DNA of 5,459 nt, taken from positions 1-5,459 of the IMG/VR virus record IMGVR_UViG_3300045988_008911; one strand, 5' to 3'. Below, piece by piece: positions 342-5,459 of this stretch. The position numbers were made by a program, and so were the translations under genes. The notes beneath the pieces are model-generated. The model saw only the letters and a program-made list of their open reading frames with translations, was not told where the DNA came from and searched no databases. Origin of the DNA: a virus. Each line of letters begins with the position of its first letter. The stretch's first letter is position 1.

Positions 342-2006
342 TTAAAAATGTCCCATCATGCCAGGAATACCATACATCGGCATAGGTCTGATACACTTTA
401 AGTTAAATTTAACATCTAAGAGGAAATGAGGATAAGACGGAACAGCAACGACACGGCTAATAGGCGGATGATCCTGTATAAATTCATCCGACAAAGTAGG
501 CAGCGAAGCAAATTTTTGAGAAAGATGCCAAATGTCCAAAGGCTCCTTGTAAGTGCTGCGGAACTGACCGGTAATCAAAGAAGGCTTATAGCGATATTCC
601 GCATAACGCTCTTGATAGCCAAATACTTTTTTATCAGCATCATTTCCTTGGCAATAAATTTCAATATTTTCAATAGTCTGTTCTCCTAAATGAGCAAAGG
701 ACGGCCAATAGAAATCAAGCACATCCGAGCGCAGCCACATTCTATTTACGCCTTGCTGGTAAGTCAAGTCAGCACGCACATTAATCAGACCGATAACATA
801 ACCAAATTCGCTAAAGGACTTAGTAAAAGCATGGTAACGCTGGGCATTTAAGCCATATGCAGCCAAGTTACCTTGAGGAGTTGTTGAATCGGTAGAACTT
901 GTCTGTGTAACAGGGTTGATATTCATCATAGAACTATGCGAACCGAGGAACTCCGGACGTTGAAGACGGGCATCGGGGTTGGTAACTCCAAAATGAGCTT
1001 GAAGTTTTTCCGTGTAACGAGTACCGCCACGGGCATCAATTTCGTAATACCTCTGAAGCATAAATGCTTGACGAAGGGAGTTAATAGTAACAGCACTAGC
1101 GGAAGTTAAATCAACAGAAAGACCACTCAAAGAAGCAGCCTTAATAGTACCTTTAGAATCATCGTATGGAGTGGAGCGAACATAGGAATCATTAGCTAAA
1201 CCACTAGCAGGAGAAGAAGCGATAATAGGGTAAACGCTATTACGAGAAGTATCATAAATAGTACCGAGGGGAAGATTAGAAATATCTACATTAGAAGAAA
1301 CAACATTAGCAGATCCACCTAAAGCCAAATCAACAGCCGGGCCTTTTTGCGGCCAAGGCAGCGCACCGGTAAAATAATCGTATCTCTTGCCACGGGGAGC
1401 CGGATCATACCAATTTATTACACCGGACGGAAGGCCATAATTAGGATTAGCGGTAGATTGTCCCATTGGTTCAAGAACAGTATTTGTTTCACCTTTAGAA
1501 ATCTTTACAGACTTCTGTAAGTTTTCATCTCTAAACCATTCATTCCAAATGAGCCAATAAGAACGGAACGGCAAGCAGTTGACAGAAACATTATTAAAAG
1601 TACCAGAAGCACAAGCTATACCCATATAATCGGGCAGCTTATTAGTCATATCGCCGGTAAGGGATACAGTAGGGACTAAATAATCAGTAGAATCTTCAGG
1701 GTTTTCCTGTTCTCCGCATAAATTAACCCATTTGTCATATACGAGCCTTGAAGGAACGAAGAAGAAAAAAGACTCAATATAGATATTGTCCATAAACGGC
1801 ACAACCGGAGTAGCCAAACGGCAGAACTCTACAGGATTTAAAGTAAAAGTATCGCCTGGAATAACTTCATCGACGAAATAAGGAATCAGCTGGCCTTCAT
1901 TGAAGGTTGTCTTATAAACATGACTTCTATCGAAGACGGAGCGACGAATATTAGCTTGTGGTATCATCGCAAAGTGCGATTGATTTACACGAATGTTACG
2001 AGCCAT
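342..2006 (-). CDS. VP1: Major capsid protein VP1 (F-like jelly-roll capsid protein), 554 aa
   Basis: The N-terminus IRRSVFDRSHVYKTTFNEGQLIPYFVDEVIPGDTF and the internal YDYFTGALPWPQKG and INSLRQAFMLQRYYEIDARGGTRY blocks are hallmark gokushovirus VP1 motifs. AAGGAG (2020-2015) lies 8 nt before the ATG at 2006. Confidence 0.97.
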   Translation of the reverse strand: MARNIRVNQSHFAMIPQANIRRSVFDRSHVYKTTFNEGQLIPYFVDEVIPGDTFTLNPVEFCRLATPVVPFMDNIYIESFFFFVPSRLVYDKWVNLCGEQENPEDSTDYLVPTVSLTGDMTNKLPDYMGIACASGTFNNVSVNCLPFRSYWLIWNEWFRDENLQKSVKISKGETNTVLEPMGQSTANPNYGLPSGVINWYDPAPRGKRYDYFTGALPWPQKGPAVDLALGGSANVVSSNVDISNLPLGTIYDTSRNSVYPIIASSPASGLANDSYVRSTPYDDSKGTIKAASLSGLSVDLTSASAVTINSLRQAFMLQRYYEIDARGGTRYTEKLQAHFGVTNPDARLQRPEFLGSHSSMMNINPVTQTSSTDSTTPQGNLAAYGLNAQRYHAFTKSFSEFGYVIGLINVRADLTYQQGVNRMWLRSDVLDFYWPSFAHLGEQTIENIEIYCQGNDADKKVFGYQERYAEYRYKPSLITGQFRSTYKEPLDIWHLSQKFASLPTLSDEFIQDHPPISRVVAVPSYPHFLLDVKFNLKCIRPMPMYGIPGMMGHF

Positions 2007-2127
2007 AGTATAAACTCCTTAATTTTATTAAACAGCCGAAAAGCACGAGAACGGCATTTTCGTTATCAAATACGAAGGTAATTAAAAATAAATAAAAGGC
2101 TTATTTTTGAAGGTTTTTCGTATTTTG

Positions 2128-2175
2128 TGTCACCTTGACCAGTTACTATCAAGTAGGTAACTGGTCAAGGTGACA
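2128..2175. repeat. Perfect 19-bp inverted repeat (hairpin/cruciform) with a 10-nt loop in the VP3-VP1 intergenic region; candidate replication origin element
   Basis: 2128-2146 TGTCACCTTGACCAGTTAC is the exact reverse complement of 2157-2175 GTAACTGGTCAAGGTGACA. The loop at 2147-2156 is tatcaagtag, which reads CTACTTGATA on the coding-sense strand. Confidence 0.9.
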
Positions 2176-2213
2176 GGGTTATTATTCTACATAAGTGAAT
2201 ATTAGCATATAAG

Positions 2214-2657
2214 TTATTTTTTCTCTGAATTACTCTCTACTGCTACAGGAGGTTCAGGTACTACGGGACTATCTACATTAGCTTTAGGTTTTAAACCTAA
2301 CTCCTCAAGCCTGTTTGTAACATTAGGATCAGTAGACGTTAGAGCATCAAGCAACTGACGAGGATCATTACCAAATTCAGCACGGACGCTGGAAGGCAAA
2401 TCCGCAAACTCAGCGTTAACATTTGCAACAAGGTTGCAAGCGGTTTCATAATCCGGCAATAAGGTAGTATCACCATATTGAAGAGTAGACGGATCATGTG
2501 CACCAACAGAATCTACAATACCGGTAGTGTTGAAATTAGCAATAATATGATGAATGTCGCATTCATCAGCATAAGTTTGATCAGCGAGTGAAGGCTGCGT
2601 AATCTCGACGTGCGGTTTTGGCGGTTGCTCGTCATAAAGCGTAAAAAACTTAGCCAT
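2214..2657 (-). CDS. VP3: Internal scaffolding protein VP3, 147 aa
   Basis: ADECDIHHIIANFNTTG, QYGD, PDYETACNLV, FADLPSSVRAEFGNDPRQLL and EELGL match the conserved pattern of gokushovirus/Chlamydia-phage VP3 scaffold proteins, as I recall that family. AAGGAG (2673-2668) lies 10 nt before the ATG. Confidence 0.88.
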   Translation of the reverse strand: MAKFFTLYDEQPPKPHVEITQPSLADQTYADECDIHHIIANFNTTGIVDSVGAHDPSTLQYGDTTLLPDYETACNLVANVNAEFADLPSSVRAEFGNDPRQLLDALTSTDPNVTNRLEELGLKPKANVDSPVVPEPPVAVESNSEKK

Positions 2658-2816: not shown

Positions 2817-2846
2817 AGACGCCTAACATAACGCTAGACGCCTTAA
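2817..2846. repeat. Direct repeat agacgcct(t)aa x2, start-to-start spacing 19 nt; the second copy overlaps the VP5-like stop codon
   Basis: agacgcctaa at 2817-2826 and agacgccttaa at 2836-2846 share an exact 8-nt core, agacgcct. Confidence 0.6.
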
Positions 2847-3202
2847 TTGTGTTGTGGTATTATAACTTGCCTTGTGTTAATTATACCACAAAATGAGAAA
2901 GCGGGCAAGCGTACCTTACAATTACATTTTAGCACTCTCCGGAGGGGGGTCAACAGTTCTGTGGCAGTAGATAACAATAAAGTGGGATTTTGTGGGGAAA
3001 ATTCACATGTCTTGTCATTAAACTCACCCAAATACATCAGAACAAAATCCTCGTGATAGTCATGGATAATGTTAGAACGCTCCGGAGTGGAAGGCTGATT
3101 AACCATGATTTGGAATTGACGGATAGCCATAGCATTATTTTGTTGAGTAAAAGGCGGGTTCATCAGCTCACCCTTGCGATCATAAATACAATAAAGTTTC
3201 AT
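2843..3202 (-). CDS. VP5: VP5-like small nonstructural protein, 119 aa, with an unusually long C-terminal tail
   Basis: The N-terminal ~70 aa (MKLYCIYDRKGELMNPPFTQQNNAMAIRQF...HEDFVLMYLGEFNDKTCEF) fit the pattern I associate with gokushovirus VP5/nonstructural proteins (MKxxxIYDxK..PF, A.R.F, EDFxLxxxGxFD). The position between VP4 and VP3 also fits. GAGGTG (3213-3208) precedes the ATG at 3202, which overlaps the upstream stop as TAATG. Confidence 0.6.
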   Translation of the reverse strand: MKLYCIYDRKGELMNPPFTQQNNAMAIRQFQIMVNQPSTPERSNIIHDYHEDFVLMYLGEFNDKTCEFSPQNPTLLLSTATELLTPLRRVLKCNCKVRLPAFSFCGIINTRQVIIPQHN

Positions 3203-3462
3203 TATTTCACCTCATTATTTAAAGAATCAGCTTTTAAAATACATAAAAGCTTATTTCTGCACTCTTCGCTAACTTCAAAATAAAAACAACACCAACGGAA
3301 AATTTTACCAGCAGACTGCGCACGCTTCATATAACCACGGCAACGGCCATAGGTAGGAAAACATGCTTGGCTGGAAAGAATTTCCTCAACAGCTTTAATA
3401 GTAGAAGGCTTAAGAGTGGACTTGGTACCAACAAAAGTAGAAAAATAGTAATCTTTTAACAT
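3202..3462 (-). CDS. Hypothetical Cys-rich protein, 86 aa (ORF86), the first gene after the consensus promoter
   Basis: The ATG at 3462-3460 lies 8 nt after GAGG (3474-3471) and just downstream of the predicted transcription start. The protein MLKDYYFSTFVGTK...CFPTYGRCRGY...WCCFYFEVSEECRNKLLC has 6 Cys. The ORF track's 105-aa version starts at a TTG (3519) upstream of the -35 box, which I consider less likely. I recognise no family. Confidence 0.6.
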   Translation of the reverse strand: MLKDYYFSTFVGTKSTLKPSTIKAVEEILSSQACFPTYGRCRGYMKRAQSAGKIFRWCCFYFEVSEECRNKLLCILKADSLNNEVK

Positions 3463-3487
3463 ATCGCTAACCTCACTTTCTGATATT

Positions 3488-3516
3488 ATTATACCATGTG
3501 AAATAGCAACTGTCAA
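3488..3516 (-). promoter_or_regulatory. Consensus sigma70/sigmaA promoter: TTGACA, 17-nt spacer, TGnTATAAT
   Basis: - strand: TTGACA (3516-3511), spacer GTTGCTATTTCACATGG (17 nt), TATAAT (3493-3488), with an extended -10 TG at 3496-3495. The predicted start is near A3481, about 19 nt before the ORF86 ATG. Confidence 0.75.
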
Positions 3517-3540
3517 CAACTTTTTGCAACTTTTTGCAAC
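3501..3540 (-). repeat. Four consecutive 10-nt units each starting GTTG; the first two are exact GTTGCAAAAA copies. They are helically phased and run into the -35 box.
   Basis: - strand 3540-3501: GTTGCAAAAA GTTGCAAAAA GTTGTTGACA GTTGCTATTT. The block sits directly after the VP4 stop (3545-3543). Confidence 0.8.
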
Positions 3541-3542
3541 AT

Positions 3543-4487
3543 TTACAAACCTAAATTATCAAAATCACGTTCAAATTGTTCCTGCCGGTGCTTCATAATC
3601 TTCTCCCTAGCTTCTAACCTTTTACAATCTATAATAGCAGCCTTTGTATTTTCCTGTTTATTATGCTTGTATAAACTATACCATACCGGATTAGAGCGTT
3701 CAAAAAGTGTTTGATAATACCTAGGTATTTTATATTTAGCTCCGTTCATCGTAACAAAACCAAGCTTAAAAATATCCTCTGAATATTTATAAAAATAATC
3801 TGCTCCTATACCGGGCTTTAAAGAGCTGCCAACAAATTCCGGAGTAATGCCTAAAGCATCATACATACAGGCATTTTTTCCGGTCTGCTTCTTAAGACTA
3901 TATTTAGCTACATACCTAGCCGATTCAAATGTGACTGCACCTACAACATTAAAACCATACGGCCATAGCTTCTCAATAGTCGGAGAGCGAAAGAGGTTAT
4001 AACCAGCGGTCAACGCCGATACTTTGCGAACATCCGAAGGAAACCAACCAAAGCAAAGAATATGATAATGCGGCCTGCGGTTAAGATCGCCATACTCACC
4101 GCAGCATAAAAAACGTATCTTAGAATTATCATGATAATCTAAATAGCGACGCAACCTCTTAAAAAATAATTGTAAATGGTTGCGATGCAAAGAGCCATCA
4201 ACTGGAAGGCAATCATCATTATAGGTCAATGTAATAAAGCAGTTATGAAGATGTAATTTAGCTTCATGGACACAACGAATAGCCCAATCATTAGCCTTGT
4301 CAAGACGGCAACCAAGGCATTGACCACAGGGAACGACAACTGCATAATTATTAGCTAACTCACTTTTAGCTATTTCCAGAGATTTTCCGGACAGGTCGCG
4401 ATAAGACACGAAATCAGATAGCTCAAATTTGCCGTTAACATTGGGAACAGCAGAGCGTTTAGCAAACAACGGATTAAGGCAAGTCAT
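3543..4487 (-). CDS. VP4: Replication initiation protein VP4 (HUH-superfamily rolling-circle endonuclease, phiX gpA-like)
   Basis: RCR motif 1 is CFITLTY. Motif 2 is the HUH block RPHYHILCF (H-Y-H at 4070-4062). Motif 3 is the two-tyrosine block ARYVAKYSLKK (Tyr codons at 3914-3912 and 3902-3900). An N-terminal Cys cluster PCGQCLGCRLD is also present. I prefer the ATG at 4487 (MTCLNPLF...). The ORF track starts at an in-frame GTG at 4496. Neither start has a strong SD, so translation may be coupled to the J-like ORF, which ends at 4503. Confidence 0.95.
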   Translation of the reverse strand: MTCLNPLFAKRSAVPNVNGKFELSDFVSYRDLSGKSLEIAKSELANNYAVVVPCGQCLGCRLDKANDWAIRCVHEAKLHLHNCFITLTYNDDCLPVDGSLHRNHLQLFFKRLRRYLDYHDNSKIRFLCCGEYGDLNRRPHYHILCFGWFPSDVRKVSALTAGYNLFRSPTIEKLWPYGFNVVGAVTFESARYVAKYSLKKQTGKNACMYDALGITPEFVGSSLKPGIGADYFYKYSEDIFKLGFVTMNGAKYKIPRYYQTLFERSNPVWYSLYKHNKQENTKAAIIDCKRLEAREKIMKHRQEQFERDFDNLGL

Positions 4488-4502
4488 AATACACACAGCT
4501 TT

Positions 4503-4938: not shown

Positions 4939-5459
4939 TTATTTAGAAAAATAATTAGCAATGCCGGAAAACAAACGATTAGCAGCACGGCCAAAAGTGT
5001 TCCATGGCAAGCCGTCATCAGAAAGACCAAGATTTTTATAGTCGGCATTACGAGAAGTTTTATAATCATAATCAGCTTTAGCGACATTAGATAACTGAGC
5101 ATTATAAGAGGCAGAACTATTAGCAGCATTACCCTGTGCATACATCATAGCAGCTTGAGCTGGCATAACAACATTCATCATATATTGTTGACTGAGCTTT
5201 TGAGCATCGATATATTCACCTTGCTTAACAGCATTAGCTAAATTTTGTTTTACCAAAGCCAAATTATCATTATAGGATTCAGCGGCTAATTTATTAGCAA
5301 CAGAAATGCCGTAAGTTTCAGCATCATATTTTTTAGCAGAGCTACCAGCCAAAATTGTTTGAGCGGCTAAATTTTTTATTTGTTCATCACTCATTTTTTC
5401 GGCAACCTGAGCTTGACGATTGGCAGCTTTAGCAGAATTACCAGCAGCAGTAGCAGACA
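4939..5459 (-). CDS. VP2: VP2 DNA pilot / minor capsid protein, C-terminal part. The frame is open to the right window edge, and 5405-5459 duplicates 1-55.
   Basis: Upstream of the track's ATG at 5394 the frame stays open to the window edge (..SATAAGNSAKAANRQAQVAEK-MSDEQIK..) and there is no SD before that ATG. The 151-aa call is therefore a linearisation artefact. The stop is TAA at 4941-4939. Confidence 0.85.
   Translation of the reverse strand, partial: SATAAGNSAKAANRQAQVAEKMSDEQIKNLAAQTILAGSSAKKYDAETYGISVANKLAAESYNDNLALVKQNLANAVKQGEYIDAQKLSQQYMMNVVMPAQAAMMYAQGNAANSSASYNAQLSNVAKADYDYKTSRNADYKNLGLSDDGLPWNTFGRAANRLFSGIANYFSK
5405..5459. repeat. Terminal direct repeat, copy 2 (circularisation overlap)
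   Basis: Exact copy of 1-55. A 55-nt overlap is what a de Bruijn assembler with k=55 leaves on a circular contig (inference). Confidence 0.96.

Follow-up and report, generated by a model that had tools for sequence, protein, structure and literature searches.

A covarying hairpin displaying a phiX174-type nick sequence is a probable viral-strand replication origin of gokushoviruses

The IMG/VR virus record IMGVR_UViG_3300045988_008911, analysed here over its 5459 bases (the window), is a complete circular gokushovirus genome with a perfect 19-bp hairpin at positions 2128 to 2175, in the gap between the genes for the scaffold protein VP3 and the capsid protein VP1. We propose, with a probability that we put at roughly 0.75, that this hairpin is the viral-strand (+) origin, i.e. 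the double-strand origin for rolling-circle replication of the phage, and that the replication initiator (Rep) VP4 would cut within its loop, between G2150 and A2149 on the coding strand. The proposal was reached because the loop core equals the sequence ACTTG^AT cut by the homologous phiX174 protein, and because several features jointly point to a rolling-circle double-strand origin: an invariant asymmetric loop, a stem conserved in its pairing only, a fixed adjoining box, occurrence once per genome and a preferred strand. Comparison with other genomes further indicates that the hairpin is one member of an element common to essentially the whole subfamily Gokushovirinae. Such an origin would be of a functionally known kind; what appears to be new is a hairpin loop bearing the phiX/pC194 nick sequence in company with a phiX-type two-tyrosine Rep. 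The literature covered does not describe an origin for any gokushovirus; the older papers on Chp1, SpV4, Chp2 and phiMH2K fall outside that coverage, so that an earlier mention is possible.

A perfect hairpin in the VP3-VP1 gap

Read on the - strand, which encodes every recognisable gene of the window, the hairpin consists of a 5' arm TGTCACCTTGACCAGTTAC (2175..2157), a 10-nt loop CTACTTGATA (2156..2147) and a 3' arm GTAACTGGTCAAGGTGACA (2146..2128). In agreement with a preliminary description of this DNA, made from its letters alone, the two 19-nt arms (2128-2146 and 2157-2175) are 100% complementary across the 10 nt between them, and the hairpin, which that description had called the longest inverted repeat of the genome, tops the inverted-repeat list of the window. 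When 100 dinucleotide-preserving shuffles of the window were searched for perfect inverted repeats with loops of 3-20 nt, the longest measured 7-13 nt, mostly 8, against the 19 observed. Folded as DNA, the 207-nt gap reached -39.3 kcal/mol (z = -8.8), and none of 200 shuffles folded as well; the hairpin is far beyond chance. Its location in this gap, also claimed before, agrees with the gene coordinates and Pfam matches, which leave it intergenic, 38 nt past VP3 and 121 nt ahead of VP1.

Apart from the inverted repeat itself and its fold, the assignment of the hairpin draws on the covariation of its stem in 93 distinct homologues (see below). The covariance model of the element (R1) matched positions 2123..2175 on the - strand over its full length (model positions 1-53 of 53), scoring 58.6 bits with an E-value of about 8e-11, and the only other R1 match in the window, a weak one of 22.6 bits on the + strand, mirrors this palindrome. 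A better nick motif elsewhere in the window, a possibility raised in the preliminary description, was looked for; the exact 8-mer TACTTGAT, which forms the conserved loop core (2155..2148, - strand), was found once, and the model gave one strong match. The adjoining 3' box, GGTGACAC (2127..2134, - strand), comprises the base of the 3' arm plus one further base, occurs once on the - strand of the window and is a candidate Rep-binding ('key') sequence. Scanning the window against Rfam 15 returned only a chance-level match to mir-582 (22.8 bits against a gathering score of 84).

The loop core coincides with the cleavage site of a homologous Rep

The phiX174 origin had been quoted in the preliminary description, and correctly so: in NC_001422 it reads CAACTTGATATTAATAACACTATAGACCAC, with the rep_origin annotated at A4306. 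Cleavage takes place between G4305 and A4306, and roles have been described for Tyr343 and Tyr347 of the initiator gpA (bioRxiv 10.64898/2026.07.25.740675). On the - strand of the window, positions 2156 to 2142 read CTACTTGATAGTAAC, as given earlier, and an unbroken ACTTGATA is common to the window loop and the phiX174 origin (CAACTTG^ATA...), which places the homologous nick between 2150 (G) and 2149 (A). The earlier count of 12 matches in 15 positions also stands, but it is mostly carried by the ACTTGATA 8-mer and the likeness beyond it is weak. ACTTGAT corresponds to positions 3-9 of the phiX origin, across the mapped cleavage site, and ACTTGAT(A) to positions 3-10; as in rolling-circle origins, the predicted nick sequence is thus equal to the cleavage site of a characterised homologous Rep. 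By a rough estimate, the chance that a random conserved 8-mer would share seven contiguous bases across the phiX cut site is about 1e-3.

A second, shorter resemblance lies further downstream. From CTTGAT to the next GAC the spacing is N15 in phiX (CTTGAT-N15-GACCAC) and in the commoner gokushovirus class, and N16 in the window, so that GACCAC and GACAC might be homologous binding sequences; the distal match being short, we keep it as suggestive only. When the covariance model was applied to phiX, its best match was the nick site itself, at a non-significant score (E = 3.5).

The genome also encodes an HUH Rep with the catalytic tyrosines, another feature of replicons with a rolling-circle double-strand origin. 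VP4 (317 aa) has REP_ORF2-G2P as its sole domain, an HYH motif at aa 143-145 (4070..4062) and a YVAKY motif at aa 195-199 (3914..3900), the latter shared, as had been noticed before, with phiX gpA (residues 343-347). BLASTP aligned VP4 with phiX gpA at E = 1e-5 over the motif 1-2 region. VP4, as the HUH rolling-circle Rep, is presumed to act on the element.

In the mechanism that we envisage, the inverted repeat would extrude as a cruciform in the supercoiled replicative form, or fold on single-stranded DNA (ssDNA), with the loop CTACTTGATA exposed in single-stranded form. VP4, an HUH protein with the gpA-like YVAKY motif, would dock on the stem and the neighbouring GGTGACAC box, cut the coding strand within TACTTG^ATA at 2150/2149, a position placed by homology with phiX174, and become joined to the 5' A. 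Synthesis by host polymerase would start from the 3' G and proceed along the 3' arm, past the box and into the AT-rich region; after one round, the second tyrosine would cut the regenerated site, and the displaced strand would be circularised and packaged.

Stem pairing covaries while loop and box are fixed

The preliminary description had suggested asking of related phages whether the loop is conserved while the stem covaries, and the comparison gave that outcome: the loop core CTTGAT is kept across very divergent gokushoviruses and the changes in the stem are compensatory. A plain MAFFT alignment (A1) left the 5' arms out of structural register, with one register in just 25 of 47 rows. We therefore built a covariance model from 47 diverse copies, realigned 99 copies (93 distinct) to it and counted 13 modelled pairs. 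Since an alignment based on a model leans towards the structure, we relied on controls in which pairing partners were slid by 1-3 columns. Among the 93 distinct sequences, standard pairs filled 73.7% of the cells, compared with 31-42% in the slid controls; double changes were seen in 163 cells versus 31-80, and the covariation score was 0.333 versus at most 0.112. Pairing values as high as these did not arise in any of 500 column shuffles, and 11 of the 13 pairs had double changes. Compensated stems include GTAAC/GTTAC, AGGTAC/GTACCT, GGGAAC/GTTCCC and CTCTATTG/CAATAGAG, and among the closest relatives of the window GACCAG/CTGGTC is replaced, again with compensation, by GATCAG/CTGATC or GAACAG/CTGTTC.

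The loop core and the 3' box are, by contrast with the stem, fixed in sequence. The box has the form (G/C)TGACAC(C) and lies 13-14 nt past CTTGAT, whether inside the stem or not; of 166 unique copies, 103 have a spacing of N13 and 48 one of N14, and the arrangement CTTGAT-N13/14-GTGACAC, a putative nick sequence with an adjacent element, is present in 151. It is reminiscent of phiX, where a nick sequence is likewise combined with a binding sequence. Bipartite layouts of this kind, with one part for nicking and one for binding, have been described for rolling-circle origins (PMC5714925), and the box may serve in Rep binding. Taken together, these patterns indicate that the hairpin structure and the unpaired loop and box sequences are both under selection. 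The idea, put forward in the preliminary description, of a phiX-type nick sequence displayed in a hairpin loop, combining two styles of origin, is consistent with what is seen across these relatives.

The element is distributed across the Gokushovirinae

Compared as a whole with GenBank phages by megablast, the genome had almost no nucleotide identity, with seven short matches. Sensitive blastn of the 207-nt gap retrieved about 38 Microviridae records with matches confined to the hairpin part. The six that we inspected had the same loop, (C/T)TACTTGAT, and stems that differed in sequence and kept their pairing, with GGTGACAC retained just 3' of the hairpin even where it lay outside the stem.

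To these we added two samples chosen blind to the motif. In 81 IMG/VR genomes picked by VP4 similarity (36-92% identity), CTTGAT-N(6-26)-GTGACAC was present in 64, always on the VP4 strand, and another 13 combined this hairpin and loop with variants of the box, e.g. ACTGACAC or CTGACAG. The covariance model found one site per genome in 77 of the 81, on the gene strand in all 77; the four genomes lacking a model match are contigs shorter than their relatives. The second sample comprised 73 genomes around phiMH2K, picked by VP1 similarity, of which about 44 had model matches and 49 were recovered by a hairpin-loop scan. Here the core CTTG(A/T)T was constant and was preceded by TA, CA, TT, TC or AA. 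In homologous hairpin loops overall, CTTGAT was invariant save for CTTGTT or CTTGG in a few variants.

A scan of IMG/VR with the pattern TACTTGAT-N(8-22)-GGTGACAC returned at least 120 contigs, and about 90% of the matches listed were 4-6 kb long, the size of microviruses. Eight pattern-matching contigs without similarity to VP1 or VP4 were set aside as probable coding sequence of something else. Among them is a class with a 22-nt spacing, GGTGTACTTGATAG...GGTGACAC (GGTGTACTTGATAGYTCTCTTTGGCATAAACGTGGTGACAC), seen in L089, L091, L153, L190, L197, L141 and L128. The four of these contigs that were screened, L089, L091, L153 and L190, all of microvirus size, had no VP1 or VP4 similarity; the class probably represents coding sequence conserved in some unrelated virus, not the same element.

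The isolated gokushoviruses also carry counterparts. In Chp2 the element reads CTAGCGTATAACAG-TCTACTTGAT-CTGTTATACGCTAG-GTGATAGC, lies after VP3 and was matched by the model with E = 1e-5. Pattern and position identify a hairpin with a TACTTGTT loop after Vp5 in phiMH2K, another with a TACTTGTT loop at about nt 510-550 in SpV4, and GGGCTATAT-CCTCTTGGCT-ATATAGCCC-GAGCGACAC, with a CTCTTGG loop, directly after VP3 in Chp1. In two E. coli prophages the element lies, like the window hairpin, in the VP3-VP1 interval; they reside in the chromosomes NZ_CP010122 (L285:3382-3433; model E = 1e-11) and NZ_CP015229 (L286:3107-3158; E = 3e-7). The E. coli gokushovirus prophages adjoin hipBA at the dif region, and in one of them the loop CCCTCTTGAT replaces CCCTACTTGAT.

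Gene order and inverted clades

Gokushovirus lineages differ in which of the VP4-VP5 and VP1-VP2 blocks comes first (loci L008-L205). Two gene orders are common, ori-VP4-VP5-VP1-VP2-VP3 and ori-VP1-VP2-VP4-VP5-VP3, and in each of them the element directly follows VP3, so that the junction between VP3 and the putative origin is kept through this rearrangement; rarer orders exist, such as that of L003, where the element lies between VP2 and VP4.

Among the matches listed, about 136 of 165 distinct microvirus-size contigs have the element on the gene strand, and about 21 have a complete, oriented element on the strand opposite all genes. Such inverted elements, with hairpin, TACTTGAT loop and GGTGACAC box, are found in a clade of 5.5-5.9 kb genomes encoding an M15 peptidase and in several genomes of 4.4-4.6 kb. 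In L093 the element is at 3218-3269 on the - strand, VP1, VP4, the M15 peptidase and VP3 are on the other strand, and the motif abuts the VP4 stop. MG945781 (L210:895-938) is inverted with the same layout, as are L094, L099, L111, L113, L116, L117, L137, L149, L159, L165, L171, L178 and L200. Inverted elements are also present in L115, L145, L155/L272, L163, L164, L269, L276 and L283; in L163 the element occupies its usual site before VP4 but is flipped. The compound proposition that the element is the origin of essentially all Gokushovirinae and that the inverted clades package the antisense strand, so that negative-sense microviruses exist, is one that we advance tentatively and consider rather doubtful.

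Alternative explanations

Several observations weigh against an origin. Conserved loops are also found in complementary-strand origins, an example being the CS-6 loop of plasmid ssoA. Outside ACTTGATA the similarity to the phiX origin is weak, the distal GAC(C)AC match extending over just 3-5 bases. The covariance model is not significant on phiMH2K, SpV4 or Chp1, whose copies were recognised by pattern and by position after VP3 or VP5. Finally, about 13% of the motif-bearing genomes, among the matches listed, carry the element opposite all genes, and an inverted element fits an origin only if the antisense strand is packaged, which is unreported for Microviridae. We regard the inverted copies as neither supporting nor refuting an origin, but as yielding a sharp prediction.

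The most serious alternative, and still an unlikely one, is a complementary-strand (-) origin, i.e. a hairpin on the incoming viral ssDNA that host primase, RNA polymerase or PriA would read and that would prime conversion to duplex, like the phiX174 F-G hairpin, the G4 origin or the single-strand origins (sso) of plasmids. In favour of such a site, the hairpin is stable, covaries and lies in a non-coding gap on what is presumed to be the viral strand, and conserved loop motifs are known from ssoA. A complementary-strand role has moreover been proposed (Olo Ndela et al., PMC9865509) for hairpins with conserved loops that very small microviruses carry between their capsid and Rep genes. However, phages of Chlamydia, Bdellovibrio, Spiroplasma and E. 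coli have this loop core in common with many environmental lineages, and such constancy across unrelated hosts argues against a signal for a host factor, which would be expected to track the host. Identity of the core with the cleavage site of the homologous phiX Rep is also not expected of a priming signal. Two other conserved hairpins in the same gap (see below) are free for priming or for roles in RNA, so that 2128-2175 need not be the priming site or a terminator. The element may also have a dual role.

Somewhat less probable is a duplex palindromic site that is bound and left uncut, such as an operator for VP4 autoregulation, a site for VP5 or a host protein, or a packaging signal. A perfect palindrome adjoining a conserved box would suit protein binding, and the inverted copies of some clades would be tolerable if the site were read on the duplex. 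Yet the stem is free to change in sequence while its pairing is kept, and the conserved part is the asymmetric loop; stems that vary but still pair argue for a folded single strand or a cruciform rather than for sequence-specific recognition of both half-sites. A packaging role would be part of origin function and no true rival, since packaging in phiX is coupled to the origin.

We consider quite improbable an RNA signal at the end of VP3, be it a terminator, an attenuator or a hairpin stabilising the 3' end of the mRNA. Weak terminators follow genes J, F, G and H of phiX, VP3 is the gene that precedes the element in each of the two common gene orders, and the RNA hairpin would be very stable. 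Against this, the sense strand runs on as CAAAATACG without a U-run: the bases following the hairpin are CAAAATACGAAAAACC, and the absence of a T-run there had already been remarked upon. A promoter and terminator scan of the gap found none on the - strand, its sole call being the same hairpin on the + (antisense) strand. An RNA signal would also leave unexplained why the loop and the unpaired 3' box are invariant throughout the subfamily, and the motif is kept on the antisense strand in the inverted clades.

A dif-like recombination site for lysogeny, used by XerC/XerD and possibly as folded ssDNA like that of the CTX phage, is effectively refuted: some gokushoviruses do integrate at dif via XerCD, but dif motifs are rare in gokushoviruses (PMC7062461) and the element is near-universal, the 11-6-11 dif architecture is absent, and in the E. 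coli prophages the element is internal (VP3-VP1) with the phage dif motif at the prophage junction. A promoter reading of TTGACC in the stem was likewise discarded, TTGACC not being conserved in other clades.

Genome layout and other features of the gap

Bases 1-55 of the window are identical to bases 5405-5459, an assembly overlap from which we deduce a circular genome with a true length of 5404 nt. All genes being on the - strand, VP4/Rep occupies 4496..3543 (Pfam PF23343, REP_ORF2-G2P, E = 2.4e-23) and is followed by an unnamed open reading frame without a family match (3519..3202), VP5 (3202..2843; Pfam Phage_ORF5), the VP3 scaffold gene (2657..2214; Pfam Chlamy_scaf), the 207-nt non-coding gap (2213..2007) and the VP1 capsid gene (2006..342; Pfam Phage_F). 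VP2 starts near 335 and its frame crosses the window-end junction.

Directly 3' of the putative origin hairpin is a second, AT-rich hairpin (2068-2125, - strand) with a 9-bp outer stem, AAATACGAA/TTCGTATTT. Among 16 close relatives, 8 show compensatory changes at two of its pairs (ACG/CGT versus CAG/CTG); it is a candidate complementary-strand origin or unwinding element. A third, small hairpin, CGAAAATGC...GCTTTTCG (2037-2062, - strand), lies 30-55 nt ahead of the VP1 start codon and also has two pairs compensated in close relatives (G-C to A-T in 8 of 16, G-C to C-G in 2 of 16). Its role may lie in VP1 expression, at the RNA level, or in priming. The second hairpin has at its 3' foot the sequence TATTTGATAAC (2062-2072, - strand), which is invariant in 16 of 16 close relatives and resembles the loop-plus-arm sequence TACTTGATAGTAAC of the putative origin hairpin, which may be a coincidence or may mark a secondary Rep-related site.

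Implications

Gokushoviruses are among the most abundant ssDNA phages of gut and environmental viromes, and an element of about 53 nt could give thousands of metagenomic genomes a natural point from which to number them and a means of assigning their strand, as well as a sequence model for recognising gokushovirus DNA and prophages. As an origin it would also be a minimal cis-element for gokushovirus phagemids and for the biochemistry of VP4. E. coli K-12 offers a system for testing the hypothesis, since the enterogokushovirus prophages, the group of the revived phage EC6098, carry the element. If it is true, the inverted copies predict virions that contain the non-coding strand.

Comparison with known origins

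Within the Microviridae, a parallel is offered by the hairpins that separate the capsid and Rep genes in the 'reekeekee' and 'roodoodoo' groups (Olo Ndela et al. 2022, PMC9865509), which belong to other clades and are likewise intergenic, with a conserved loop and compensatory stems. Their authors tentatively assigned them a role in complementary-strand priming, with no link to a Rep nick site (PMC9865509).

With the 30-nt origin of phiX174 and the Bullavirinae, CAACTTG^ATATTAATAACACTATAGACCAC, which is cut by gpA, the gokushovirus element shares the nick core ACTTGAT(A), a homologous Rep with the same YVAKY motif, and a second conserved block whose end, GAC(C)AC, comes about 15-16 nt past CTTGAT. 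Like the phiX origin it is present once, and in the window's own clade and most others this copy is on the coding strand. The phiX origin lies inside gene A and has an AT-rich spacer and no hairpin, whereas the gokushovirus element is intergenic, has its predicted nick site in the loop of a covarying 19-bp hairpin and uses the 3' arm as the spacer. About 8-12 of the 30 positions match, contributed just by the ACTTGATA core and the distal GAC..AC. Being neither in the Rep gene, nor unstructured, nor conserved over 30 nt, the element would not be a member of the phiX 30-nt family.

The nick site of plasmid pC194 is CTTG^ATA. Double-strand origins of the pC194/pUB110 family have CTTGATA at the origin (PMC7072734) and an HUH initiator in common with the element; they differ in Rep family (Pfam Rep_1), replicon type and flanks, and share with it neither the hairpin arrangement nor the TGACAC box.

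The origins of circoviruses, geminiviruses and nanoviruses (CRESS-DNA viruses), together with those of the pT181/pMV158 type, place the nick in a conserved hairpin loop, with a stem that covaries and a loop that is invariant. The gokushovirus element likewise has its nick position, as predicted from phiX174, in a conserved loop closed by a covarying stem. In these origins Rep-binding elements adjoin the stem, as the candidate box does here, and their orientation relative to the genes differs between lineages. The CRESS-DNA nonanucleotide NANTATTAC is, however, unlike the gokushovirus TACTTGAT, and CRESS-DNA Reps have one catalytic tyrosine and a fused SF3 helicase, whereas VP4 is of the two-tyrosine phiX type; as loop motif and Rep type both differ, the element would not be a CRESS-type origin. 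In evolutionary terms, it would connect the phiX origin, which is unstructured, to the origins that plasmids and eukaryotic ssDNA viruses present in hairpin loops.

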